A DNA stretch of 64,000 nt, taken from an uncultured virus (IMG/VR IMGVR_UViG_3300033153_010090). Taxonomy: Duplodnaviria; Heunggongvirae; Uroviricota; Caudoviricetes. This document shows, piece after piece, positions 1,148-41,012 of the stretch. Numbering within the stretch: the first letter of the stretch is position 1; every line of letters starts with the position of its first letter. Made by a program: the position numbers and the translations under genes. The notes beneath the pieces were generated by a model. That model worked only from the letters and a program-made list of their open reading frames with translations. It searched no databases and was not told the DNA's origin. The DNA lies in the IMG/VR virus record IMGVR_UViG_3300033153_010090; one strand, 5' to 3'.

Positions 1148-2299
1148 TTACGCAGTAAAGCTCTTGGTGCTGAGGAGCATGGGCAACTGACTAGCCACGC
1201 TCGCTAGACCCGGGGCAGCAATGACCGGGGCCGGCGCACCTAAAACGACCTGGGCTGTGGGGCAAACAAAAGTACTGATCTGTGCGATGAGACTGGAAAG
1301 CACGGCTACCAACTGGTCACCATGGACCAATGGGTGGGCAGCAGAGGGCCCACCCAGATGAATGGTTGCTCCGTCGATGAACATCTGGGCCGCAGCCTCC
1401 AGTGTGGCGGTGGTACCCGCCTTCAAGTTCACGTCGAGGTCGCTCTCAATGGAAGCAGACTGGGCCGATCTGTAACTCATCGTCCCGCCAACTTCCGTGC
1501 TGTGGTTCCCGTCGATGGTCTCAGTCCGGTTCCCGTGGACGAGAGAGGTTACATCCTTCTGGATCTCCCAGTTGACATTCCCCTCCTTGGTGATCTCTAA
1601 ACGCACCATAGTGTCCGCGTCCGCAGCGCCAGATGCCTTCACCAACATGTTCAGTGTAGTCTGGCTACCCTCCCCATGGGAACCAGCGGTCAGTTCGACG
1701 ATGTGCTCCTTATCGTTGGCCTTCTCCTTCACCAACAACGAGAACTTTGTCATGACGTCGCCGTCGGTGGTCTTCTCCGTCCGGTCCGCAAGCCAAGTCA
1801 GCTCCCCACCGAAGGTAAACAGCTGGTAGTTCTCACAAAAGTCACGAATGAAGTTCTGGATCGGGATGTACATTCGTTGTGCAGCGGAGGTCGCCCCAAT
1901 CTGCACGCCACCACCGCGGCGGAGGATGATGAAGTTCTCATCCCGAGTCTTCATCATCATGTCGCCCGGGTTTAACTGTGCACGATTCGAGGCGAAGTTG
2001 TCATTGTCTTCATCGTGTGGAGCCTGGAAGCCCAGGATGAATGGCACAGCGTGGAGACCCTCACTGGGGGTACAAACCCACACCAGCGCACCTATTTCAG
2101 GCACCGCATAGATGCCCTCGCCGTTGGTGTAGTGGAGGTAGGGGGTCATGATCTGGATGTCGAAGTACTTCTTGTCGCCATGCTCGGAGATGGCGTCGAC
2201 GGTCCAGTCCGCAATGTTGACGTTCGTGATCCTACCGGTCTCCACGACCGGTGAGATAAACTTGGTGTCCTGAATACCACGCGTCATCAGTACAACCAC
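1148..2299 (-). CDS. Baseplate central spike/hub protein (gp5/GpV-like)
   Basis: N-terminal OB-fold-like segment (VPEIGALVWV), beta-strand repeats (HGNRTETIDGNHSTEVGG), C-terminal HLGG..AHPLVHGDQL typical of contractile-tail spikes. Confidence 0.65.
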   Translation of the reverse strand: MVVLMTRGIQDTKFISPVVETGRITNVNIADWTVDAISEHGDKKYFDIQIMTPYLHYTNGEGIYAVPEIGALVWVCTPSEGLHAVPFILGFQAPHDEDNDNFASNRAQLNPGDMMMKTRDENFIILRRGGGVQIGATSAAQRMYIPIQNFIRDFCENYQLFTFGGELTWLADRTEKTTDGDVMTKFSLLVKEKANDKEHIVELTAGSHGEGSQTTLNMLVKASGAADADTMVRLEITKEGNVNWEIQKDVTSLVHGNRTETIDGNHSTEVGGTMSYRSAQSASIESDLDVNLKAGTTATLEAAAQMFIDGATIHLGGPSAAHPLVHGDQLVAVLSSLIAQISTFVCPTAQVVLGAPAPVIAAPGLASVASQLPMLLSTKSFTA

Positions 2300-10556: not shown

Positions 10557-11918
10557 ATGGTGGTTCCTGGGATTGTTGAGCGCATTGTGGCGCTCGTTGT
10601 CGCCGCAGGTGGAAAGGCACTGCTCGTTGGGGGAGCGGTAGTTGATCATCTGCAGGGCCGTGAGCCCAAAGACTGGGACATTGAGGTGTACGGTCTGCCC
10701 ATGTCCCGGGTGGAACAGTTGCTGACCGAGGCCGAGCTCAACCCGAAAGCTGTCGGGAAGGAGTTTGGCATCCTCAAGATCGGTGGGGATATTGAGGTGG
10801 ATGTCTCCGTCCCCCGCAGGGAGAACAAGATCGGGAAGGGTCATCGCGACTTTGCGGTGGAGCTCGACCCGAACATGACTCCCAAGGAGGCCGCTCGCCG
10901 GCGCGACCTCACGATCAACAGCATCGCCTATGACCTCAGTACGGGAGAGGTCATCGACCCCTGGGGCGGTGTTGAGGATCTGAAGGCCGGCATCATCCGC
11001 GCCACGGACCCGGAGACCTTTGTTGAGGACCCTCTCCGGGTCTTGCGCATCATGCAGCTACTCCCTCGCAAGGGGGACTCACTGGACGCTGCCACTCTTG
11101 GGCTGTGCAAGCGGCTTGAAGGTGAGTTCCAGAACCTCTCCCGCGAACGTGTGTTTGTGGAGTGGGAGAAGCTGCTGCTCAAGGCAGAGAAGCCCAGCAT
11201 TGGGCTGACCTTCTTGAGGGCGTGCGGATGGATCAGACACTTCCCTGAGCTCGCGGCACTCGTGGGCTGTGCGCAGCACCCGGAGTGGCACCCGGAGGGA
11301 GATGCCTGGCAGCACACCTTGGTGGTGTTGGACAACGCGGCCAAGGTGAGGGGCCAGCTGCCTGAGGAGTGGCGCCTCGGGTTCATGTTCGGAGCTCTGC
11401 TTCACGATGTGGGTAAGCCCTCCACCACCCTGGAGGACTTCACCAGTCGTGGTCATGACGCGGCGGGGTTGCCACTCGCTGAGGGGTTCATGAAGAGAGT
11501 CACGAACAGCAAGTCCCTACTCGAGCAGGTCGACAGCGTCGTTGGGCAGCACATGCAGCCCGGCAACCTCGAGCGGGGCAACGCCAAGGCCTCTGCCTGG
11601 CGCCGGCTGCAGAACAAGCTGCGGCTGGATGTGCTGGGGTGGATGAGCTTGTGCGACTGGGCTTGTGTCCCAGGCCGTGATGTTCTCGCGTCGAACGACC
11701 ACAAGCCCAGCAAACTGTGCTGGAAGTGGTTCGAGGACTTGGGAGCCACGGCTGAGAAGATCGAGTCTATCCTGGGAGGGAAGGACCTGGTCGCCGCTGG
11801 ATACAAGCCGGGCCCTGCGTTCGGGAAGGCTCTCCAGAAAGCCTACGAGGCTCAGATGGAGGGGATCACCAACCGGGGTGAGCTGCTTGCTATCGCAATC
11901 GAAGACCTCATCGCCTGA
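10557..11918 (+). CDS. cca: Class II tRNA nucleotidyltransferase (CCA-adding-like) with HD domain
   Basis: VGGAV.D...DWDIE, RRDLTINS, EDPLRVLR, HPEGD..HT, LLHDVGK, PGP.FG. Confidence 0.9.
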   Translation: MVVPGIVERIVALVVAAGGKALLVGGAVVDHLQGREPKDWDIEVYGLPMSRVEQLLTEAELNPKAVGKEFGILKIGGDIEVDVSVPRRENKIGKGHRDFAVELDPNMTPKEAARRRDLTINSIAYDLSTGEVIDPWGGVEDLKAGIIRATDPETFVEDPLRVLRIMQLLPRKGDSLDAATLGLCKRLEGEFQNLSRERVFVEWEKLLLKAEKPSIGLTFLRACGWIRHFPELAALVGCAQHPEWHPEGDAWQHTLVVLDNAAKVRGQLPEEWRLGFMFGALLHDVGKPSTTLEDFTSRGHDAAGLPLAEGFMKRVTNSKSLLEQVDSVVGQHMQPGNLERGNAKASAWRRLQNKLRLDVLGWMSLCDWACVPGRDVLASNDHKPSKLCWKWFEDLGATAEKIESILGGKDLVAAGYKPGPAFGKALQKAYEAQMEGITNRGELLAIAIEDLIA

Positions 11919-33998: not shown

Positions 33999-34136
33999 AG
34001 CTAGCGCCTGATGCGTTCGAGGCGCTAGACCCTGACGAGCTCCGACTCCTGGCCGATGCGGCAGGGGTAGGGTACAAGGGGCTCACCGACGATGAGCTGC
34101 GAGCCAAGCTCGAACAAGCCTCCCAGTAACCTTCAA

Positions 34137-34170
34137 GCGTCCGCCTCCTACTCAGGGGGCGGGCGCATTT
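34137..34170 (+). terminator. Hairpin terminator
   Basis: GCGTCCGCCTCCT-ACTC-AGGGGGCGGGCGC-ATTT. Confidence 0.55.
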
Positions 34171-34184
34171 GGTATCATCAAACC

Positions 34185-34487
34185 ATGGACCTGAAGATTG
34201 CCAGCCCAGAGCGGCGCGCGGATGCACGGTTGCGGAGGATCATCAGCATGATCGCCTGTGAGCGAAAGCATCAGCAACGCCGGTGGACGGACGAGGCGGA
34301 CAAACGAAGGACACCAGCTGACTGGATTGCTGTGCTGTCGATCTTCATCGGCAAAGCAGCTATGGAGACCCCGCTCTACCAGGCGAAGCTCTCTACCACC
34401 AGCTTCAAGAAACGCATCGTTCAGATCGCGGCCATTTGCATGGCCATTCTCGAGGCCATCGACGAAGGCGGAACTGATGAAGGCTGA
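34185..34487 (+). CDS. MazG-like all-alpha fold protein lacking the acidic motif
   Basis: ER.HQ..RW, DWIAVL..GK, IVQIAAIC.AILE pattern. Confidence 0.55.
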   Translation: MDLKIASPERRADARLRRIISMIACERKHQQRRWTDEADKRRTPADWIAVLSIFIGKAAMETPLYQAKLSTTSFKKRIVQIAAICMAILEAIDEGGTDEG

Positions 34488-34818
34488 GAACTACGTCGTC
34501 TCCATGACGGCATTTGAGACTGCGCTCATTGCTCTGGTTCTGATGGGGGTGACCGCCATCGTTGGTGTCGGGACCGGCTTCTACTTCGGCGCCCGCCTCG
34601 CCGCCGCGGGAGTCGTGGACCACACAAACGAGGTGCTTCAACTGTGCAACAAGGTCGTCGACCACGAGGATGATCGCGTGACCGCGTGGAAGATGAACGG
34701 TGAGAGCTGTCAAGACGAAGTGGAGCGGTATCGCACCTGGCTCACCGACGTCGAAGACTCCACAAAGCTGAGAGCCACAGTGGCACACCCCAAGCGGACC
34801 AACCGCGGAGGGCAGTGA
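34477..34818 (+). CDS. Hypothetical membrane-anchored protein
   Basis: N-terminal hydrophobic helix. Confidence 0.65.
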   Translation: MKAENYVVSMTAFETALIALVLMGVTAIVGVGTGFYFGARLAAAGVVDHTNEVLQLCNKVVDHEDDRVTAWKMNGESCQDEVERYRTWLTDVEDSTKLRATVAHPKRTNRGGQ

Positions 34819-34821
34819 GCG

Positions 34822-34859
34822 GGCCCGGCAGGTGTAACAACCTGTCGGGCCTCTTTTTT
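34822..34859 (+). terminator. Intrinsic terminator between the replication block and the convergent tRNA array
   Basis: GGCCCGGCAGG...CCTGTCGGGCC-TCTTTTTT. Confidence 0.8.
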
Positions 34860-34862
34860 AGC

Positions 34863-34948
34863 TGGCAGAGGGTAGAGGAGTCGAACCCCCAACCTTTCGG
34901 CCGCCCCGGTTTTCGAGACCGGTTGCCACCCACGTAGCAGTACCCTCT
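34863..34948 (-). tRNA. tRNA-Ser(CGA)
   Basis: Cloverleaf, loop CT-CGA-AA, long variable arm, GCCA. Confidence 0.9.
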
Positions 34949-34953
34949 TCATA

Positions 34954-35025
34954 TCGGGGTGGGCGGGTTCGAACCGCCGACCTCTCGGTCCCCGACCGAG
35001 CGCCCTACCACTGGGCCACACCCCG
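34954..35025 (-). tRNA. tRNA-Pro(GGG), C33, no encoded CCA
   Basis: CGGGGTG acceptor, loop TC-GGG-GA. Confidence 0.88.
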
Positions 35026-35090
35026 TTGTCGCTCACTGACCTCCTTCTCGTGACACACAAACCTCGTTGTTGCTCACCAGTGATCAGCTA

Positions 35091-35164
35091 TCGGGATGGT
35101 GGGGCTCGAACCCACGACCTCCGGCTCCCGAAGCCGGCGCGCTACCAACCTGCGCTACATCCCG
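35091..35164 (-). tRNA. tRNA-Pro(CGG), no encoded CCA
   Basis: Loop TT-CGG-GA. Confidence 0.92.
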
Positions 35165-35241
35165 TGGTCGGAGAGACAGGGATTGAACCTGCGACCCCCG
35201 GCTCCCAAAGCCGGTGCTCTACCAAACTGAGCTACTCTCCG
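35165..35241 (-). tRNA. tRNA-Pro(TGG)
   Basis: Loop TT-TGG-GA, ACCA. Confidence 0.95.
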
Positions 35242-35245
35242 ATAA

Positions 35246-35337
35246 TGGCGGAGCGTGAGGGATTCGAACCCCCGCGACCCGTGAAGGCCGACCTCGGGTT
35301 AGCAACCCGGCGCTTTGCCAGACTCAGCCAACGCTCC
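35246..35337 (-). tRNA. tRNA-Ser(GCT)
   Basis: Loop TT-GCT-AA, long variable arm, GCCA. Confidence 0.92.
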
Positions 35338-35343
35338 GTAGGA

Positions 35344-35454
35344 CTAGAGCGCTGGCGTACTCGGGGGTGGGTACGAGGAGGATGAGGGCGAGGGCAGACG
35401 ACCGGCGTTGAAGTGGTCGACAAAGAACAGAGCTGCCATCGTGTAGCGGAACAT
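35344..35454 (-). CDS. Leader peptide of tRNA unit 3 (MFRYTMAALFFVDHFNAGRLPSPSSSSYPPPSTPAL)
   Basis: AGGAGGG RBS; 12 of the last 16 codons are Ser/Pro; stop lies 6 nt before tRNA-Ser(GCT). Confidence 0.8.
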   Translation of the reverse strand: MFRYTMAALFFVDHFNAGRLPSPSSSSYPPPSTPAL

Positions 35455-35474
35455 GATGTTCCCTCCTACCTTTC

Positions 35475-35502
35475 AGTATCGGCATCTCCGTCGAGATGTC
35501 AA
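35475..35502 (-). promoter_or_regulatory. Sigma70-like promoter of tRNA unit 3
   Basis: TTGACA-N16-GATACT. Confidence 0.7.
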
Positions 35503-35510
35503 CAAGAAAT

Positions 35511-35586
35511 TGGGGTGACCGACGGGGTTTGAACCCGCGACCTTCCGGGCCACAGCCGGACGCTCTACCACTGAGCTACGGCCACC
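35511..35586 (-). tRNA. tRNA-His(GTG)
   Basis: Loop CT-GTG-GC, G-1 encoded, CCCA. Confidence 0.95.
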
Positions 35587-35589
35587 ACA

Positions 35590-35666
35590 TGGTGATGCCG
35601 ACCGGGCTTGAACCGGCTCTCACCGGCTTGAAAGGCCGGCGGCTCGACCCCTTCGCCTTCGGCACC
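35590..35666 (-). tRNA. tRNA-Glu(TTC), atypical D arm
   Basis: Loop CT-TTC-AA, A at position 8, ACCA. Confidence 0.8.
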
Positions 35667-35669
35667 ACA

Positions 35670-35745
35670 TGGTGGAATCGGAGGGACTCGAACCCTCGAC
35701 CCCCTGTCTGCCAGACAGGTGCTCTCCCAGCTGAGCTACGACCCC
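35670..35745 (-). tRNA. tRNA-Ala(GGC)
   Basis: Loop CT-GGC-AG, G3:U70. Confidence 0.95.
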
Positions 35746-35746
35746 A

Positions 35747-35856
35747 TACCGACCCGTTGACTTGGCTGCTGGCTATTGGCACCGCGCACGGGTCAACACG
35801 CGCTACCGGACCAGCAGTTGCCCCTCCGCTCCTGTTCGCGACCAAGAGCTTCGGTA
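35747..35856 (-). ncRNA. Unclassified structured RNA (~110 nt) between two tRNA-Ala genes
   Basis: Nested pairings TACCGA/TCGGTA, CTTGG/CCAAG, CTGCTGG/CCAGCAG, GCGCG/TGCGC. Confidence 0.45.
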
Positions 35857-35934
35857 TGGTGGACGGGAAGGGATTCGAACCCTCGACCGGCTGGGTGCAA
35901 ACCAGCTGCTCTCCCGGACTGAGCTACCGCGCCC
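35857..35934 (-). tRNA. tRNA-Ala(TGC)
   Basis: Loop TT-TGC-AC, G3:U70, one bulged acceptor base. Confidence 0.9.
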
Positions 35935-35937
35935 ACA

Positions 35938-36012
35938 TGGTACTCGTGGCGGGAATTGAACCCGCGTTACCGGCGTGAGAGGCCGGCGTCCTTACCCCTA
36001 GACGACACGAGC
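35938..36012 (-). tRNA. tRNA-Glu(CTC)
   Basis: Loop CT-CTC-AC. Confidence 0.93.
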
Positions 36013-36036
36013 ACAAACCTTGATCAATCCCTCCTT

Positions 36037-36112
36037 TGGAGCTGGTGAGAGGACTCGAACCTCCAACCTGCTGATTACAAATCAGCTGCTCTACCAGTTG
36101 AGCTACACCAGC
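36037..36112 (-). tRNA. tRNA-Thr(TGT)
   Basis: Loop TT-TGT-AA, TCCA. Confidence 0.95.
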
Positions 36113-36115
36113 ATG

Positions 36116-36180
36116 CGGGGAGCACGAGGATCGAACTCGCAACACCCCCGGCCCAGGGCGTTACCCCTAGCGGACTCCCC
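36116..36180 (-). ncRNA. tRNA-like RNA without a canonical anticodon loop
   Basis: Acceptor GGGGAGT/GCTCCCC, T arm GCGAG-TTCGATC-CTCGT, anticodon arm reduced to CCCT-GGGCC-GGGG. Confidence 0.6.
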
Positions 36181-36184
36181 GAAC

Positions 36185-36260
36185 TGGAGCTGGTGGAGGG
36201 AGTCGAACCCCCGGCCTGCTCATTACGAGTGAGCTGCTCTACCTACTGAGCTACACCAGC
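36185..36260 (-). tRNA. tRNA-Thr(CGT)
   Basis: Loop CT-CGT-AA. Confidence 0.95.
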
Positions 36261-36458
36261 ATCGCCCTTTCTGTTCTCCAAGATTCCTTTGCACGTCTTG
36301 CACGTCACTTCGCCGTCGTGTCTGGTGTGAGTGATGTATGTCTTCCAATCCAACACGATCCCACACAAAGTGATGTCTGCATCTTCAGACCCATGAGACG
36401 GACCGTACAGGGTGTCTTCTTTTGCTCTCACCCTTCGGACTGTATACCGCACATTCAC
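36243..36458 (-). CDS. Small zinc-binding protein (71 aa) inside the tRNA array
   Basis: AAGGAGGG + GTG; H...TLCG...VTCKTC; stop lies inside tRNA-Thr(CGT). Confidence 0.65.
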   Translation of the reverse strand: MNVRYTVRRVRAKEDTLYGPSHGSEDADITLCGIVLDWKTYITHTRHDGEVTCKTCKGILENRKGDAGVAQ

Positions 36459-36469
36459 AGCGCCCTCCT

Positions 36470-36545
36470 TGGAGCTGGGGACCGGGTACGATCCGGTGAC
36501 CTCTCCCGTACCAGGGGAGTGCTCTACCAACTGAGCTACCCCAGC
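36470..36545 (-). tRNA. tRNA-Thr(GGT)
   Basis: Loop CT-GGT-AC; T loop ATCGTAC. Confidence 0.92.
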
Positions 36546-36548
36546 ATA

Positions 36549-36620
36549 TGCCCGAACCTGGGTTTGAACCAGGGACACCCGGCGTGTCGAGCCGGAGCTC
36601 TACCACTGAGCTACCCGGGC
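36549..36620 (-). tRNA. tRNA-Val(GAC), C33, no encoded CCA
   Basis: Loop TC-GAC-AC. Confidence 0.88.
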
Positions 36621-36622
36621 AC

Positions 36623-36698
36623 TGGAGCACGTGACGGGGTTCGAACCCGTGACCTCAGCCTTGGCAAGGCTACGCTCTACCAACTGAGCTACACGCAC
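36623..36698 (-). tRNA. tRNA-Gly(GCC)
   Basis: Loop TT-GCC-AA, TCCA. Confidence 0.95.
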
Positions 36699-36700
36699 AC

Positions 36701-37108
36701 CTACGCTGCCTTCTTCATCCGGTCGAAGTACTGCCGCATCACCGACGCCTTCACCTCGGCGTACGTCAAACCCAGGGCCTGCGCCATGGGCCAGAAGCAC
36801 TGCTTCATCGTACGCTCACGTCCGTCTGCCTTCTCGTAGAGATCGAGCACTGAGCACTGCACACGCCCCTCGAACCGCAGATCACCCTCGAGCTCTTCGA
36901 TGAGGCACGATGTGTACCCGTTGCGCTTGCGATTGGCCGCGGTGAGCGGAGCCACCTTCGCCAACAGGTCCTTGAGCGCTGCACGCGCACCCTCGTCGAG
37001 CTTCTTGAACTCGCCCCCGTACTTGACGTACAGCTCGTCGACCTTGTTGCGCACGACGTCGTGCTTCCAGTTCATGCGGAACTTCTTGCCGCCTACGGTG
37101 ATCAACAT
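36701..37108 (-). CDS. Hypothetical protein inside the tRNA array
   Basis: AGGAGAGGGAG RBS, phage-like codon usage. Confidence 0.75.
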   Translation of the reverse strand: MLITVGGKKFRMNWKHDVVRNKVDELYVKYGGEFKKLDEGARAALKDLLAKVAPLTAANRKRNGYTSCLIEELEGDLRFEGRVQCSVLDLYEKADGRERTMKQCFWPMAQALGLTYAEVKASVMRQYFDRMKKAA

Positions 37109-37121
37109 CTCCCTCTCCTGT

Positions 37122-37337
37122 TCAGCTTGCGCTGAGCTGCAGTCCTCGTCCCAAGACGAAGAGGTTCTTGGCCAAGCACCGGACGACCTTGCCCGGCGCC
37201 TTCTCCACCATCACAGCGTCGAGGCCACGATCTGTGGTGTACCCGACGACCTTGCCGTTGAACGGCCCCTTCATACGACATCCCTTCTTCGTCCGCACCG
37301 GAGTACCGACGGGGAAAGCAACTTTGACACTCATCAC
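37122..37337 (-). CDS. Small beta-barrel (KOW/SH3-like) hypothetical protein
   Basis: AAAGGAGG RBS; FPVGTPVR...GPF.GKVVG. Confidence 0.6.
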   Translation of the reverse strand: MMSVKVAFPVGTPVRTKKGCRMKGPFNGKVVGYTTDRGLDAVMVEKAPGKVVRCLAKNLFVLGRGLQLSAS

Positions 37338-37350
37338 GGCCTCCTTTCTT

Positions 37351-37427
37351 TGGTGGGCTCGGAGGGAATCGAACCCCCGACATGCCGATTAAGAGTCGGC
37401 TGCTCTACCTAGCTGAGCTACGAACCC
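37351..37427 (-). tRNA. tRNA-Lys(CTT)
   Basis: Loop CT-CTT-AA. Confidence 0.95.
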
Positions 37428-37428
37428 A

Positions 37429-37506
37429 TGGTGGGGGCGGTCGGCATCGAACCGACGACCTCCCGGTTAAAAGCCGGGTGCTGCTGCCGCGCTGAGCTAC
37501 GCCCCC
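37429..37506 (-). tRNA. tRNA-Lys(TTT)
   Basis: Loop CT-TTT-AA; irregular D stem. Confidence 0.9.
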
Positions 37507-37612
37507 TAGCGCTTCAGTCGCCCCGGTTTCAACCGTTCCCACGTGTCCTCAGTCATCAGCACAATGTCTCTCCTCGGAAACCACGGACTCTTCAACCACT
37601 CGAAAAAACTCT

Positions 37613-37690
37613 TGGTGCCCTCGACAGGACTCGAACCTGCGACCTCCACGTCCGGAGCGTGGCGCTCTGAATCCACTGAGCTACGAAGGC
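37613..37690 (-). tRNA. tRNA-Arg(CCG)
   Basis: Loop CT-CCG-GA. Confidence 0.95.
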
Positions 37691-37693
37691 ATA

Positions 37694-37771
37694 TGGCGCC
37701 CCCGGTAGGATTCGAACCCACGACCCGCCGGTTAGAAGCCGGCTGCTCTAAATCCACTGAGCTACGGAGGC
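37694..37771 (-). tRNA. tRNA-Arg(TCT)
   Basis: Loop CT-TCT-AA. Confidence 0.95.
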
Positions 37772-37812
37772 GCAACTTGTTCATGCCGATCTCCTCCGTC
37801 GCCTGCCAACAA

Positions 37813-37887
37813 TGGTGGGCGCCCAGGGATTCGAACCCAGGACCGTTCGGTTATGAGCCGAGTGCTCTACCGCTAAGCTATGCGCCC
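37813..37887 (-). tRNA. tRNA(CAT), probably Ile2 (lysidine); elongator Met not excluded
   Basis: Loop CT-CAT-AA; GGGCGC acceptor typical of Ile2. Confidence 0.8.
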
Positions 37888-37907
37888 ACAACACCATCTC
37901 GTCTCCT

Positions 37908-37982
37908 TGGAGCCTGTACTCGGGTTCGAACCGAGGACATCCAGCTTGGAAGGCTGGCGTTCTACCACTGAACTACACAGGC
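37908..37982 (-). tRNA. tRNA-Gly(TCC)
   Basis: Loop CT-TCC-AA, TCCA. Confidence 0.95.
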
Positions 37983-37990
37983 TCATCTAG

Positions 37991-38064
37991 TGCCCAGTGC
38001 AGGGTTCGAACCTGCGCCCTCCGCTGTGTGAAAGCGGCGCTCTACCAAACTGAGCTACCCGGGC
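37991..38064 (-). tRNA. tRNA-Val(CAC), no encoded CCA
   Basis: Loop TT-CAC-AC, 3' A-CTA. Confidence 0.9.
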
Positions 38065-38081
38065 TCACTCCTTTCGATCTC

Positions 38082-38132
38082 GAGGAGGGAGGCTGGCGGG
38101 TCCAGCCATCTGTGACCTCAGCCTCCCTCCTC
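38082..38132. repeat. Long hairpin spacer
   Basis: 14-bp perfect stem GAGGAGGGAGGCTG/CAGCCTCCCTCCTC. Confidence 0.8.
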
Positions 38133-38137
38133 ACAAC

Positions 38138-38214
38138 TGGTACCCCGGGGTGGAATTGAACCACCGGCCCCTCGCTTATCAGGCGAGTGCTCTAGACCCC
38201 TGAGCTACCGGGGC
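38138..38214 (-). tRNA. tRNA-Ile(GAT)
   Basis: Loop CT-GAT-AA. Confidence 0.95.
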
Positions 38215-38259
38215 GAATACTCCCCGGGCGGTAGGCCCGGGGCGCACCGCCCATCAAAC

Positions 38260-38334
38260 TGGTAGCGGCGGAGGGATTCGAACCCTCGACTTCCGGGTTA
38301 TGAGCCCGGCGAGCTACCACTGCTCCACGCCGCA
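38260..38334 (-). tRNA. Initiator tRNA-fMet(CAT)
   Basis: 1:72 mismatch, three G-C pairs in the anticodon stem. Confidence 0.92.
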
Positions 38335-38346
38335 TCACCAACTCCT

Positions 38347-38422
38347 TGGAAGAGGCGGAGGGGCTCGAACCCCCAACCACCAGGATCAAAGCCTGGTGCT
38401 CTACCTGTTGAGCTACGCCTCT
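38347..38422 (-). tRNA. tRNA-Gln(TTG)
   Basis: Loop CT-TTG-AT. Confidence 0.92.
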
Positions 38423-38426
38423 AACC

Positions 38427-38502
38427 TGGCTGGGGCGGCAGGGATCGAACCTGCGACCTTCCGGGTCAGAGCCGACTGCTCTACCAGCTGAGCTACGCCC
38501 CA
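38427..38502 (-). tRNA. tRNA-Gln(CTG)
   Basis: Loop CT-CTG-AC, U1-A72. Confidence 0.92.
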
Positions 38503-38511
38503 TCATCAACC

Positions 38512-38590
38512 TGGCACCCCGAGCAGGACTCGAACCTGCGACCTCCTGATTCGTAGTCAGGCGCTCTGAATCCAACTGAGCTACCGAGGC
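38512..38590 (-). tRNA. tRNA-Arg(ACG)
   Basis: Loop CT-ACG-AA. Confidence 0.95.
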
Positions 38591-38600
38591 ACAACAAAAG

Positions 38601-38679
38601 TGGCGGGGCCGACGGGATTTGAACCCGCGGTCTCCTGAGTGACAGTCAGGCGAAGACGGCCAGACTCTTCCACGGCCCC
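38601..38679 (-). tRNA. tRNA-Asp(GTC)
   Basis: Loop CT-GTC-AC, GCCA. Confidence 0.95.
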
Positions 38680-38766
38680 ACAAGGTGGTGGTCGCAGCGT
38701 AGGTGTCCGTCAGCCAGGTGTCGTTACGGTTTGTCCGTGGTCGGGATCCCAGAGCTGGTGGACAGT

Positions 38767-38895
38767 TTACGCTGCCCTGGGATCTCGAAAAGGATGCTGT
38801 CCCTCGATACCGCGGACCGCAACCATCTTCGCCACGGCTGTTGCCGTAGCGGTTCTGGCTTCTTTGCTGGTCCGTATGGTTTGCACGAGTGACAT
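38767..38895 (-). CDS. Leader peptide of tRNA unit 2 (MSLVQTIRTSKEARTATATAVAKMVAVRGIEGQHPFRDPRAA)
   Basis: ATG 7 nt after the -10 box (probably leaderless); 34 different codons in 42; covers all 23 downstream tRNAs. Confidence 0.75.
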   Translation of the reverse strand: MSLVQTIRTSKEARTATATAVAKMVAVRGIEGQHPFRDPRAA

Positions 38896-38902
38896 CTTCT
38901 TC

Positions 38903-38932
38903 AAGGTAAAGGATTGTGGTTCTGAAAGTCAA
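38903..38932 (-). promoter_or_regulatory. Sigma70-like promoter of tRNA unit 2
   Basis: TTGACT-N18-TACCTT with A-rich upstream DNA. Confidence 0.6.
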
Positions 38933-38981
38933 CAACCTTTTTCTCGTCGCTACTCTTTTTTCGACGAGGTTCATATATATG

Positions 38982-39052
38982 AGTGCGGTACTGGATTCGA
39001 ACCAGTGTAGTTGGGGTTGCAACCCAACACCTCGCCTCTCGGACAACCGCAC
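38982..39052 (-). tRNA. tRNA-Cys(GCA), no encoded CCA
   Basis: Loop TT-GCA-AC, U73. Confidence 0.9.
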
Positions 39053-39053
39053 A

Positions 39054-39139
39054 TGGAGGAGGGTGAGGGATTTGAACCCCCGGAACTTTCGCCCTCACGC
39101 TTTCTAAGCGTGCGCCTTCAACCACTCGGCCAACCCTCC
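39054..39139 (-). tRNA. tRNA-Ser(AGA)
   Basis: CACGC-TT-AGA-AA-GCGTG, Ser-type body with long variable arm. Confidence 0.88.
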
Positions 39140-39141
39140 AC

Positions 39142-39219
39142 TGGTACCGGGAGAGGGAGTCGAACCCTCAGAGAACTGGGTTTTGAATCCAGCGCGTCTA
39201 CCAATTCCGCCACCCCGGC
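39142..39219 (-). tRNA. tRNA-Leu(CAA), short variable loop
   Basis: Loop TT-CAA-AA, Leu-type D arm. Confidence 0.9.
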
Positions 39220-39305
39220 GCTATACTCCTTTCGATCCCTCAACGACATCTATCTTGAGGGAGGCGCAAGGCCCCCCAGGTGTCGACCCGGGGGGCCTTC
39301 TTCTT

Positions 39306-39382
39306 TGGTACCCGGCCCGGGACTCGAACCCGGAAACTCTCGGACCTGAACCGAGCGACTGTGCCAGTTCGCCTAGCCGGGC
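39306..39382 (-). tRNA. tRNA-Leu(CAG), short variable loop
   Basis: Loop TT-CAG-GT. Confidence 0.88.
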
Positions 39383-39388
39383 ACATGA

Positions 39389-39469
39389 TGTAGCGGGATG
39401 GATTTGAACCACCGACCTTTCGGTACTCGGGGGTTACAGCCCCGTGCCTTACCACTCGGCCACCGCTAC
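39389..39469 (-). tRNA. tRNA-Tyr(GTA), no encoded CCA
   Basis: Loop CT-GTA-AC, variable arm, 3' A-TCA. Confidence 0.92.
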
Positions 39470-39472
39470 ACA

Positions 39473-39561
39473 TGGTGTCGGAGGAGGGACTTGAACCCAC
39501 ACGACCCTTTCGGGCCACCGGCTCCTCGGGCCGGCGCGTCTACCAGTTCCGCCACTCCGAC
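39473..39561 (-). tRNA. tRNA-Leu(GAG), C33
   Basis: Loop CC-GAG-GA, long variable arm. Confidence 0.9.
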
Positions 39562-39595
39562 ACATCATTCTTTCTCGTCGCCACTCACCTCAGTT

Positions 39596-39673
39596 TGGTA
39601 CGGGTGAAGGGACTCGAACCCTCAGAGACCCGGGTCTTAAACCCAGCGCATGTACCGATTCTGCGACACCCGC
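39596..39673 (-). tRNA. tRNA-Leu(TAA), short variable loop
   Basis: Loop TT-TAA-GA. Confidence 0.88.
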
Positions 39674-39678
39674 ATGGT

Positions 39679-39754
39679 TGGTGGGCCGGGGCGGATTCGA
39701 ACCGCCGACGCGCGGCTCTTCAGGCCGCCGCTCTACCGACTGAGCTACCGACCC
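39679..39754 (-). tRNA. tRNA-Phe(GAA)
   Basis: Loop CT-GAA-GA. Confidence 0.95.
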
Positions 39755-39816
39755 GCATAAGCGGATGGCGCAGCCGATAAATCGAGTTGTGAGCGTCTTC
39801 GTCATCAGTGCCCTCA

Positions 39817-39891
39817 TGGCAGGCGGCCAAGGAATCGAACCTTGCTGACGGCTGGATTTGGAGTCCGACCCGCTTACCCAGAGCGCCGCCC
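39817..39891 (-). tRNA. tRNA-Trp(CCA), non-canonical compact fold
   Basis: Loop CT-CCA-AA, G73-CCA, no 8/9 connector, extended anticodon stem. Confidence 0.8.
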
Positions 39892-39896
39892 AAAGG

Positions 39897-39972
39897 TGGC
39901 TCCAGGGGAGGGACTCGAACCCCCGACCAGGCGGTTAACAGCCGCCCGCTCTACCAGCTGAGCTACCCTGGA
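39897..39972 (-). tRNA. tRNA-Asn(GTT)
   Basis: Loop CT-GTT-AA, U1-A72, GCCA. Confidence 0.95.
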
Positions 39973-39982
39973 ACAGTTGGGG

Positions 39983-40102
39983 CTAGCGCCAGCTCGTATT
40001 CAGTCGGGGATACAAAAATAGGGAGTCGAGACAAAGAAGTAAGGAGCTCGACGTGGGGGATCGAGGAGTGGTGCGTGCGATGATGGTCTGTTCGGTACGC
40101 AT
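39983..40102 (-). CDS. Leader peptide of tRNA unit 1 (MRTEQTIIARTTPRSPTSSSLLLCLDSLFLYPRLNTSWR)
   Basis: AGGAG RBS; all six Leu codons plus Cys, Phe, Tyr, Asn, Trp and Ser codons; stop lies 10 nt before tRNA-Asn. Confidence 0.82.
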   Translation of the reverse strand: MRTEQTIIARTTPRSPTSSSLLLCLDSLFLYPRLNTSWR

Positions 40103-40119
40103 GGCTGTCTCCTAGTTTC

Positions 40120-40148
40120 AGGATGCACAGTCACATTCGATCTGTCAA
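40120..40148 (-). promoter_or_regulatory. Sigma70-like promoter of tRNA unit 1
   Basis: TTGACA-N17-CATCCT. Confidence 0.65.
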
Positions 40149-40645
40149 TACCAATTTTGAATGGCCAGATAAATACCCGCGGTCAAAGATGAGGCAATGA
40201 CAATCCACCCGGGTATGCGTAGCCACCAAGGGGAGATACCAAAGTCCGCCGCGGCCTTCTGCAGGTCAGTGAACGAACTGCTACCCCACGACCCAACCCA
40301 CAGGTCAATGAGGCCCCCACCGAGAACAACGAGCCACCCGGCCCACATCCAGTCAGGCCAGTAGCTGAAGAACGGGAAGGCCACTGCGGGGATGATGTTG
40401 GCAAGTCGCGGAGCCAGACTGATCCATCCCTGCTCGTGATCTCGCATCGGCCGGTACAGCGTCTTGCTGTTGCACGCCCACCGCCAACCGCCTTTGTACC
40501 GGTGCGGGATGACCTTGATCTCCCAGCTCTTCACCCCAACAAGGTGGTCCGCCACGACGACGTGAAGGAGCTCATGGATGTAGGCCCAGAAGAGGAAGGT
40601 GGGAACGAACCCGACGACCAGGATGATGACGAGCTGGATGATCAT
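40145..40645 (-). CDS. Membrane protein with HExxH (M50/zincin-like metallopeptidase)
   Basis: IHELLHVV, ISLAP, several transmembrane segments. Confidence 0.65.
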   Translation of the reverse strand: MIIQLVIILVVGFVPTFLFWAYIHELLHVVVADHLVGVKSWEIKVIPHRYKGGWRWACNSKTLYRPMRDHEQGWISLAPRLANIIPAVAFPFFSYWPDWMWAGWLVVLGGGLIDLWVGSWGSSSFTDLQKAAADFGISPWWLRIPGWIVIASSLTAGIYLAIQNWY

Positions 40646-40652
40646 GGCAGTA

Positions 40653-40961
40653 TCAGTTCCAACCCTCGACGCCAGTGACGAACTTCTGACGCTTCACGTT
40701 CTGTGTCATCGGATTCCACTTGGCGGTCTGAGTGACACCGCGCGCGTTGGTGCCAGTGCCCTTGCTCACAGCCTGCTGGATGGTCTTGCCGTGCCCTTTG
40801 AACGACGGAGTGAACCCAGAAGACTTCAAGGCCTTGGGCTTGAACAGCTTGCCAACACCCTTGGCGGCGCCAGCAACCATCGAGCCAAGGCCCGCATCCT
40901 TCTCGAAGCCATTGATGTACGCGAGCTCGTCGACAAAAGCTGCCATCATGATGGGATTCAT
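40653..40961 (-). CDS. Small putative virion internal protein
   Basis: AFVDELAYINGFEKDAG motif; AAAGGAG RBS. Confidence 0.7.
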   Translation of the reverse strand: MNPIMMAAFVDELAYINGFEKDAGLGSMVAGAAKGVGKLFKPKALKSSGFTPSFKGHGKTIQQAVSKGTGTNARGVTQTAKWNPMTQNVKRQKFVTGVEGWN

Positions 40962-41012
40962 AGTCAGCTCCTTTCGTGCCTCAGTGATACCACGGGTGGA
41001 GGTGGGGAGGAA

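Follow-up and report, generated by a model that had tools for sequence, protein, structure and literature searches.

In bacterial leader-peptide attenuators such as trpL, hisL, leuL, thrL and ilvL, the codons of a short open reading frame (ORF) name the resource that is sensed, and the speed of the ribosome is the signal. The thr and ilv leaders sense two or three amino acids. Rho-dependent leader-peptide control, as in tnaC of the tna operon and in mgtL/mgtP-type leaders, does not need an intrinsic terminator. A T-box is an untranslated element that binds a single tRNA, and its targets are aminoacyl-tRNA synthetase or amino-acid genes. The depletion of tRNAs by host nucleases is a recognised major antiviral strategy, and to our knowledge next to nothing has been described about how phages regulate their tRNA genes. 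In mycobacteria, leaderless polycysteine short ORFs are reported to be cysteine-responsive attenuators (10.1101/834739). Here we analysed an array of 38 tRNA genes in the IMG/VR record IMGVR_UViG_3300033153_010090, which comes from a large uncultured phage; the window is the whole stretch of 64 kb. The array falls into three blocks, each headed by a short ORF (leader) whose codons match the tRNAs of the block behind it. These codon-matched leaders are real and selected.

Codon match between leaders and tRNA blocks

ARAGORN found the 38 tRNA genes on the minus strand only, from 34863 to 39972, and 36 of the 38 were above threshold in Rfam. The initial annotation had described three units, each made of a sigma70-like promoter, a short ORF and tRNA genes. 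The three blocks were recovered, with ORFs of 39, 42 and 36 codons; the promoters are treated below. In order of transcription, leader 1 is followed by 10 tRNA genes, leader 2 by a spacer of 87 nucleotides (nt) and 23 tRNA genes, and leader 3 by 5 tRNA genes.

39983..40102, minus strand: leader 1, an ORF of 39 codons plus stop; the codons cognate to unit 1 lie within codons 21-38
38981..39972, minus strand: unit 1, 10 tRNA genes (Asn, Trp, Phe, Leu-taa, Leu-gag, Tyr, Leu-cag, Leu-caa, Ser-aga, Cys), from ARAGORN and Rfam
38767..38895, minus strand: leader 2, an ORF of 42 codons plus stop, with 34 distinct codons
35511..38679, minus strand: unit 2, 23 tRNA genes (Asp to His), from ARAGORN, split by three protein-coding ORFs
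35344..35454, minus strand: leader 3, an ORF of 36 codons plus stop, with a tail rich in Ser and Pro
34863..35337, minus strand: unit 3, 5 tRNA genes (Ser-gct, Pro-tgg, Pro-cgg, Pro-ggg, Ser-cga), from ARAGORN

Coverage was counted with the decoding rule of the initial annotation (G34 reads C/U, A34 reads U/C/A, U34 reads A, C34 reads G, and CAT is counted via ATG). The recount agreed with the claim that each leader holds a cognate codon for all of its own tRNAs: 10/10 for leader 1, 23/23 for leader 2 and 5/5 for leader 3. Under strict Watson-Crick pairing, own-block coverage drops to 5/10, 19/23 and 4/5. Coverage of foreign blocks had been reported as much lower, and this trend held, although leaders 1 and 3 each cover 10/23 of unit 2 and not 9/23. 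Leader 2 covers 3/10 and leader 3 covers 6/10 of unit 1, and unit 3 is covered to 2/5-3/5 by the other leaders. The codon match is confined to the reading frame of the ORFs. The other two frames of the same stretches reach 6 and 6 of 10, 14 and 14 of 23, and 3 and 5 of 5.

We calculated the exact probability (P) that a random ORF of equal length covers the whole block. Given the codon usage of the phage, P was 1.0e-4 for leader 1, 7.3e-8 for leader 2 and 1.2e-2 for leader 3; given uniform codons, the values were 5.0e-3, 8.6e-7 and 3.5e-2. Hence, the codon content of leaders 1 and 2 stands out against chance, and leader 3 is weak when taken alone. As an empirical null, every same-length window of the 64 kb was scored in six frames. 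Unit 2 was fully covered in 9 of 127,750 windows, every one of them at leader 2. Full coverage of unit 1 was seen in 51 of 127,768 windows, which form 6 clusters, with 22 of the windows at leader 1.

The match had also been placed at the level of isoacceptors. This was borne out for leader 2: when synonymous codons were drawn anew from the genome usage for an unchanged peptide, P was 1.2e-4, and the probability at the amino-acid level was 0.20. Among the 41 non-start codons of leader 2, 34 are distinct, meaning that the leader is a census of single codons and has no runs. The leader codons are rare in the phage, as the initial annotation had supposed: in 11,659 codons of long ORFs, TTA is used 1, TGT 2, AGA 2, ATA 4 and AAA 4 times per thousand.

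The unrelated Synechococcus phage S-CBWM1 served as a control. Its 57-codon gp18, which lies before a block of 21 tRNAs, covers 15/21 (p 0.40). Within unit 2 of the window, a mini-ORF of 18 codons (37507-37563, minus strand) has GAGGAG upstream, contains AAA and AAG and abuts tRNA-Lys-ttt, which is followed by tRNA-Lys-ctt. It was considered as a further leader and is treated as chance; it is not conserved in the related phage G005 (see the following section).

Leaders in related phages

Relatives were reached through the UvsX-like recombinase of the phage. A search of this protein against 1.84 billion representatives gave a distinct group of 11 relatives (E < 1e-94). Ten of them were aligned, with a match of 843 amino acids (aa) in two stretches left out, and 43 IMG/VR loci were found with the alignment. 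The ten closest loci (L005-L014) carry no tRNA. Arrays are present in two records, G005 (202 kb, 34 matches) and G004 (133 kb, 17 matches, ended by the contig end), and five further records of relatives are fragments with 0 to 3 tRNAs. G004 and G005 were reached at 45% identity of the UvsX-like protein and are best regarded as family-level relatives.

The blocks of G005 and G004 comprise Leu only; Ser-gct, Pro, Pro, (Pro), Ser; His-Cys-Gln-Gln-Tyr; Glu-Glu; and Asp with 18 others. The order of unit 3, from Ser-gct to Ser, is shared by both relatives. A short ORF lies just upstream of all eight blocks examined, and these leaders cover 4/4, 4/4, 5/5, 17/19, 2/2, 3/3, 5/5 and 5/5 of their tRNAs. 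For the three phages taken together, the leaders account for 83/85 tRNAs of their own blocks, against 86/238 off the diagonal.

Co-variation of leader codons with tRNA content in relatives had been proposed as a check by the initial annotation, and it was found. Leader 2 and the leader of the Asp block in G005 are homologous, with 15 identical bases and an FRDP tail, and their blocks differ. For the tRNAs private to one of the two blocks, a cognate codon is present in the own leader in 12 of 13 cases and in the other leader in 5 of 13 (Fisher one-sided p 0.0056). Codons for Trp and Asn occur in the G005 leader, which lacks those for Glu and His, and leader 2 shows the reverse, in agreement with the placement of the tRNAs. 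Moreover, the leaders track their tRNAs past inserted protein genes, namely a 147-aa ORF in G005 and a 71-aa and a 135-aa ORF in the window. The 147-aa ORF (L058 10505-10950, minus strand) lies between tRNA-Asp and tRNA-Arg-acg, where the window has a gap of 10 nt; judged by eye, it may be HNH-like. The 15 identical bases (window ~38782-38796, L058 ~11190-11204, both minus strand) encode (P/T)FRDP, and the remainder has diverged. The shared stretch opens with four T and looks like half of a tRNA T-arm.

The two His-Cys-Gln-Gln-Tyr leaders are hardly alignable. QQHYCH forms the end of one, YQHCHQY lies within the other, and both hold all five codon families. The homologous Leu leaders of the relatives lack one of the six Leu codons, and none is absent from leader 1 of the window.

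Chance, base composition or free choices made in the initial annotation are a very improbable source of the match. Leader 3 alone is indeed unremarkable, and the wobble rule and the unit borders were set in that annotation. Against this stand the exact P of 7e-8 for leader 2, whose full coverage of its block is unique in the window, the pattern in 8/8 blocks of two relatives, the co-variation (p 0.006) and the negative control phage.

Alternatively, the short ORFs might be translated small genes or by-products of strong promoters without any part in regulation, with a codon content that stems from the function of the peptide or from local composition; we consider this quite unlikely. C-richness does follow codon identity, as leaders of the Ser/Pro/Leu type lie above the 96th percentile of C over G and the others do not. 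The peptide motifs CPSSSSPSPS, GLLSLLR and FRDP are also conserved between relatives. However, a peptide function leaves 21 codon families in 42 codons (P 7e-8) and the effect of synonymous choice (P 1.2e-4 given the peptide) unexplained, and the non-alignable His-Cys-Gln-Gln-Tyr leaders both hold five families. The leader peptides have no family match and no homologue in the protein collection.

Other searches gave little. When the array was compared with isolated phages by megablast, the matches were confined to tRNA-sized stretches of 4 records. No match was found by tblastn for the neighbouring proteins of 135 aa and 166 aa, and the identity of the DNA polymerase to isolated phages was at most ~34%, with none of them close. 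Scans of IMG/VR proteins yielded nothing for either of these neighbours or for the polymerase. A metagenome scan with the 166-aa protein gave three matches of 30-34%, all without tRNAs. No relative was found among genome contigs, and a 24-base pattern of leader 3 had no match in IMG/VR.

Contigs of four public runs labelled as sediment metagenomes contain pieces of the array that are 93-97% identical, with a different layout. Among the 40 of 260 differences listed, none is in leaders 1 or 2. Relatives of ~95% identity, from runs X1-X3, differ in the content of unit 1: one contig carries 479 bases in place of the 664 of the window between 39148 and 39812, and another carries 98 bases in place of 160 around tRNA-Phe. 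Positions 36791-36971 are covered in none of the four runs, and positions 36972-37333 are hardly covered, at a depth of ≤2.6 in one run each.

Start signals, RNA structure and genome context

A TTGAC(A/T) hexamer is located 37-48 nt ahead of all three leader ATGs; the window has 44 such hexamers, counted over its two strands.

40143..40148, minus strand: TTGACA, -35-like, of leader 1; poor -10, missed by the consensus scan
38903..38932, minus strand: promoter-like site of leader 2; TTGACT, 18-nt spacer, TACCTT, 7 nt to the ATG
35475..35502, minus strand: promoter-like site of leader 3; TTGACA, 16 nt, GATACT, 10/12 consensus matches

In a scan for consensus promoters, only the site of leader 3 passed. 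The TTGACA of leader 1 overlaps the stop codon of an upstream 166-aa ORF (40645..40145), and for this reason read-through into unit 1 is possible. The term operon needs a restriction: the blocks are delimited by promoter-like sites and not by terminators, which makes read-through from upstream possible. The leaders of G004 and G005 have promoter-like sites as well, composed of TTGNCN and a -10 hexamer, which is TANNNT in seven cases and GAGGAT before the Glu leader.

Leader 1 has the ribosome binding site AGGAG 6 nt from its ATG, and leader 3 has AGGAGG. The site of leader 2 has a geometry that fits a leaderless mRNA. Five leaders of G004 and G005 resemble leader 2 in geometry, in that 6 nt separate a TANNNT or GAGGAT hexamer from the start codon. 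We checked the substitution pattern in two comparisons. Between the two Leu leaders of the relatives, codons 6-25 comprise 10 identical, 6 synonymous and 4 non-synonymous codons. The synonymous changes include an AGC/TCC switch of serine codons and a reciprocal CTA/CTT swap at codons 16 and 21, which leaves both codons present. In a relative of ~96% identity, the frame of leader 3 is intact and none of the five matching codon families is lost; there are 4 synonymous and 3 non-synonymous changes and none at a second codon position. Judging from the Shine-Dalgarno or leaderless geometry together with this pattern, the leaders are very probably translated.

The following structures were predicted at the ends of the leaders.

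38680..38766, minus strand: structured spacer from leader 2 to tRNA-Asp, fold z -4.3
39943..40008, minus strand: predicted pairing of the end of leader 1 with the 5' part of tRNA-Asn, -30.5 kcal/mol
35327..35356, minus strand: predicted 11-bp hairpin of the end of leader 3 with bases 1-11 of tRNA-Ser-gct

In leader 2, a long predicted hairpin starts from the last codons, includes the stop codon and extends into the spacer; an alternative hairpin has 8 bp. When the region was folded with the ribosome at different codons, the alternative hairpins varied with its position. The homologous region of G005 has a fold z of -3.3. In the leaders with a long spacer, the last codons and the stop lie in a predicted hairpin formed with the spacer. 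The stop codon of leader 3 is at the stem-loop junction of its hairpin. In the ~96% relative, two changes occur in this stem and the pairing is kept.

In the Ser/Pro leaders of the three phages, the stop is 6-8 nt from tRNA-Ser-gct, and a helix is predicted between the last codons, starting with a CCA proline codon, and tRNA bases 5-11 (1-11 in the window). For the G005 Glu leader, the predicted partner is bases 1-8 of tRNA-Glu. The energies of these stop-codon hairpins are -20.5, -29.2 and -22.6 kcal/mol for the three Ser/Pro leaders and -18.0 kcal/mol for the Glu leader. An outer helix of 7 bp is present in all three Ser/Pro leaders, with two pairs changed on both sides between the phages, as read from single folds; MAFFT alignments place the helix bases in different columns. 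Hence, a predicted hairpin that bears the stop codon is a recurring feature of the leaders. The duplex of leader 1 with tRNA-Asn had p values of 0.007-0.017 against shuffles and random 36-mers and is seen in the minimum free energy (MFE) fold of the leader with its tRNAs.

These structures bear on the improbable alternative that the leaders are untranslated RNA elements of the tRNA precursor, which serve processing or folding or make contact with anticodons like a T-box specifier, with incidental frames. The fold z of -4.3 in the leader 2 region and of -3.3 in its G005 homologue are in its favour, and pairing with the first tRNA works at the RNA level. The alternative does not account for complete coverage in the ORF frame only, for a start codon with Shine-Dalgarno or leaderless geometry in every leader, or for the coding-type substitution pattern. 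A search with Rfam 15 (E up to 1) of 34700-40300 returned tRNA-type matches and sub-threshold noise only; neither a T-box nor another Rfam match supports an RNA element.

Leaders 1 and 3 are the most C-rich and G-poor stretches of the region, with C/G ratios of 3.67 and 2.92 (78-nt windows). C over G exceeds the 95th percentile in 5 of the 11 leaders of the three phages. Leader 2 is at the 85th percentile, and 5 of the 8 leaders of relatives are below the 95th. The C-richness looks like a by-product of the Ser, Pro and Leu codons. A general model of Rho loading was demoted, as C over G is high in only 5/11 leaders.

Three protein-coding ORFs lie inside unit 2 and were absent from the initial annotation.

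37337..37122, minus strand: ORF of 71 aa
37108..36701, minus strand: ORF of 135 aa
36458..36243, minus strand: ORF of 71 aa

None of the three had a match in the family search. The 135-aa protein has a single relative (83%) among 5.8 billion clusters. A related contig has 874 bases in place of the 1154 of the window around the first 71-aa ORF and the 135-aa ORF (36701-37337). The other 71-aa ORF (36243-36458) encodes two cysteine pairs and lies between tRNA-Thr-ggt and tRNA-Thr-cgt, with its final codons and stop inside the tRNA-Thr-cgt gene. It is a real gene, because 6 of the 9 listed differences in the related contig are at third codon positions.

The G+C content of the window is 59.6%. It encodes a tRNA nucleotidyltransferase, a family A DNA polymerase, a DnaB-like helicase, a primase and the UvsX-like recombinase. 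The tRNA nucleotidyltransferase (CCA-adding enzyme; 10557-11918, plus strand; PHROG E 1.6e-67) is 23 kb from the array, and the tRNA genes whose sequence was read carry their own CCA ends despite this enzyme. Just beyond the last tRNA, a 13-bp hairpin (34821-34852) with a T-run on the plus strand and an A-run ahead is the terminator of a converging plus-strand gene, and it may close the tRNA array too. Long G+C-rich hairpins without U-runs occupy three spacers between tRNAs (38064-38138, 38214-38260 and 39219-39306, minus strand), the first with a near-perfect 14-bp stem. These may be processing sites. At the end of the G005 array, ARAGORN called a tRNA-like gene (L058 8265-8336, minus strand) with an odd two-base anticodon loop.

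Proposed function and comparison with known systems

We propose that each block has its own promoter, followed by a short translated ORF in which every tRNA of the block is sampled, and we name this ORF a 'codon census' leader. The ribosome would pass through it fast only with a full supply of the tRNAs of the block, which would make the leader a cis-acting gauge of the decoding capacity for the codons of the block. It would thereby set the amount of usable tRNA from the block. The most concrete structural candidate is the predicted stop-codon hairpin, in which the last codons of the short-spacer leaders (6-10 nt to the tRNA) would pair with the 5' acceptor strand of the first tRNA. If this helix is real, a ribosome at the end of the leader would free the first tRNA for folding and processing. 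Its presence would settle whether the partner of the 5' acceptor strand is the leader or the 3' strand of the tRNA itself. This choice would amount to a folding or processing switch. That the leaders gauge decoding capacity is the most economical reading of the sequence data, and we give it a probability of roughly 60%.

A number of results weigh against this gauge. Unit 3 was fully covered in 9,835 of 127,786 windows (7.7%), and leader 3 alone is not significant for this reason. The leaders are rich in codons foreign to their own unit: tRNAs of the own unit read 14/38, 30/41 and 9/35 of the non-start codons of leaders 1, 2 and 3. Leader 1 also covers the first three tRNAs of unit 2. CTA occurs in all Leu-containing leaders, although the phage has no tRNA for CTA. 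In G004 and G005, the sliding-window fractions of the leaders range from 9e-4 to 8e-2 and are optimistic because the ORFs were picked after inspection. The Ser/Pro and Glu leaders of these relatives score 0.05-0.08 only, the Asp-block leader of G005 misses 2/19 tRNAs, and the two phages have homologous leaders in common, so they are not independent of each other.

At the small tRNA loci of other relatives, only 1 of 3 has a matched mini-ORF. This is the lone tRNA-Tyr of G001 (L052 ~1415-1460, plus strand), with a TTGACA / TATCAC site and a 14-codon ORF that contains three Tyr codons and stops 41 nt ahead of the tRNA. The tRNA-Asn of G002 has a promoter-like site and no leader, and the only ORF at the Arg-Met-Trp trio of G003 runs over the apparent tRNA 3' end.

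The structural results belong on the same side. A scan for intrinsic terminators on the minus strand (34000-41000) found 0 terminator-like sites. Against shuffled sequences, leaders 1 and 3 show no significant structure (z +0.28 and -0.29). The distance from the stop codon to the first tRNA is 10 nt in leader 1 and 6 nt in leader 3. As these two leaders have no structure and their stops are this close to the tRNA, there is no room for a terminator-antiterminator switch, and an attenuator of the trp/his type was rejected. Attenuation had been suggested in the initial annotation and finds no terminator on the tRNA strand to act through. The duplex energies of leader and first tRNA are significant for leader 1 only (p 0.014, 0.05-0.10, 0.3-0.5, 0.13, 0.2 and 0.5-0.6), and the helix is a lead rather than a result because most of these values are not significant. 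Furthermore, such a helix accounts for the control of the first tRNA and not of the whole block.

If the leaders gauge decoding capacity, the direction of the response may be homeostatic, with slow decoding raising tRNA output; we hold this as quite possible, short of probable. The specific proposal of the initial annotation, a multiplexed tRNA-pool sensor at isoacceptor level, is tentative and somewhat doubtful. In this sensor, scarcity or cleavage of any one of ~20 isoacceptors would stall the ribosome and raise the matching tRNAs, and cleavage by a host anticodon nuclease would also cause the stall.

It is unlikely, on the other hand, that successful decoding licenses output instead of shortage raising an alarm. 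Full decoding would then let the ribosome open the stop-codon hairpin, so that polymerase or processing proceeds, and the block would be made while translation works and be off when translation fails. A stop codon in or beside a predicted hairpin in leader 2, leader 3, the Asp leader of G005, both Ser/Pro leaders and the Glu leader fits this arrangement, as a ribosome at the stop must melt such hairpins. The hairpins, however, have no U-runs and no terminator was found, and positive feedback would deprive the phage of precisely the tRNAs that are scarce. The rest of the probability given to the gauge falls to a regulatory role with another output.

If the gauge is real, these would be the first tRNA genes under ribosome-mediated control, and the leader would be the most multivalent known by far. 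If the sensor of isoacceptors were true, its mechanism would be new, and phage tRNA arrays would be inducible counter-defence and supply modules and not constitutive cargo. A leader could be used to predict the tRNA content of its block and vice versa, and the layout can be searched in any phage genome by a simple statistic. This would flag dozens of unannotated, probably translated mini-genes in viral genomes. No description of leader-ORF control of tRNA genes was found in the literature, as far as the portions of the sources available to us extend.

Among the known systems, a T-box resembles the proposed leaders in being a cis-acting leader that uses codon-anticodon logic to sense the state of one specific tRNA. 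The phage leaders differ in that they lack an Rfam T-box match and their match depends on the reading frame. With regard to Rho, leaders 1 and 3 resemble loading sites in being unstructured, rich in C and poor in G. Unlike Rho-dependent leaders, the set has C over G above the 95th percentile in 5/11 only and no evident arrest peptide.

The mycobacterial polycysteine ORFs are leaderless, and a putatively leaderless geometry is seen in leader 2 (7 nt from the -10-like hexamer to the start codon) and in five leaders of relatives (6 nt). The mycobacterial ORFs are reported to be the first cistron of their transcript and to sense one tRNA or amino-acid supply by ribosome stalling. They use runs of a single codon and have protein-coding targets, whereas the phage leaders are a census of many codons with tRNA genes behind them.

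The operon attenuators of amino-acid synthesis are also close: a short ORF, here very probably translated, lies directly upstream, its codons are cognate to the genes behind it, and ribosome speed would be the signal. The phage leaders differ in lacking a U-run terminator hairpin, with 2 of 3 leaders unstructured, and in preceding tRNAs and not enzymes. They further differ in their isoacceptor resolution, and in place of runs of one codon they hold up to 21 codon families, mostly once each.

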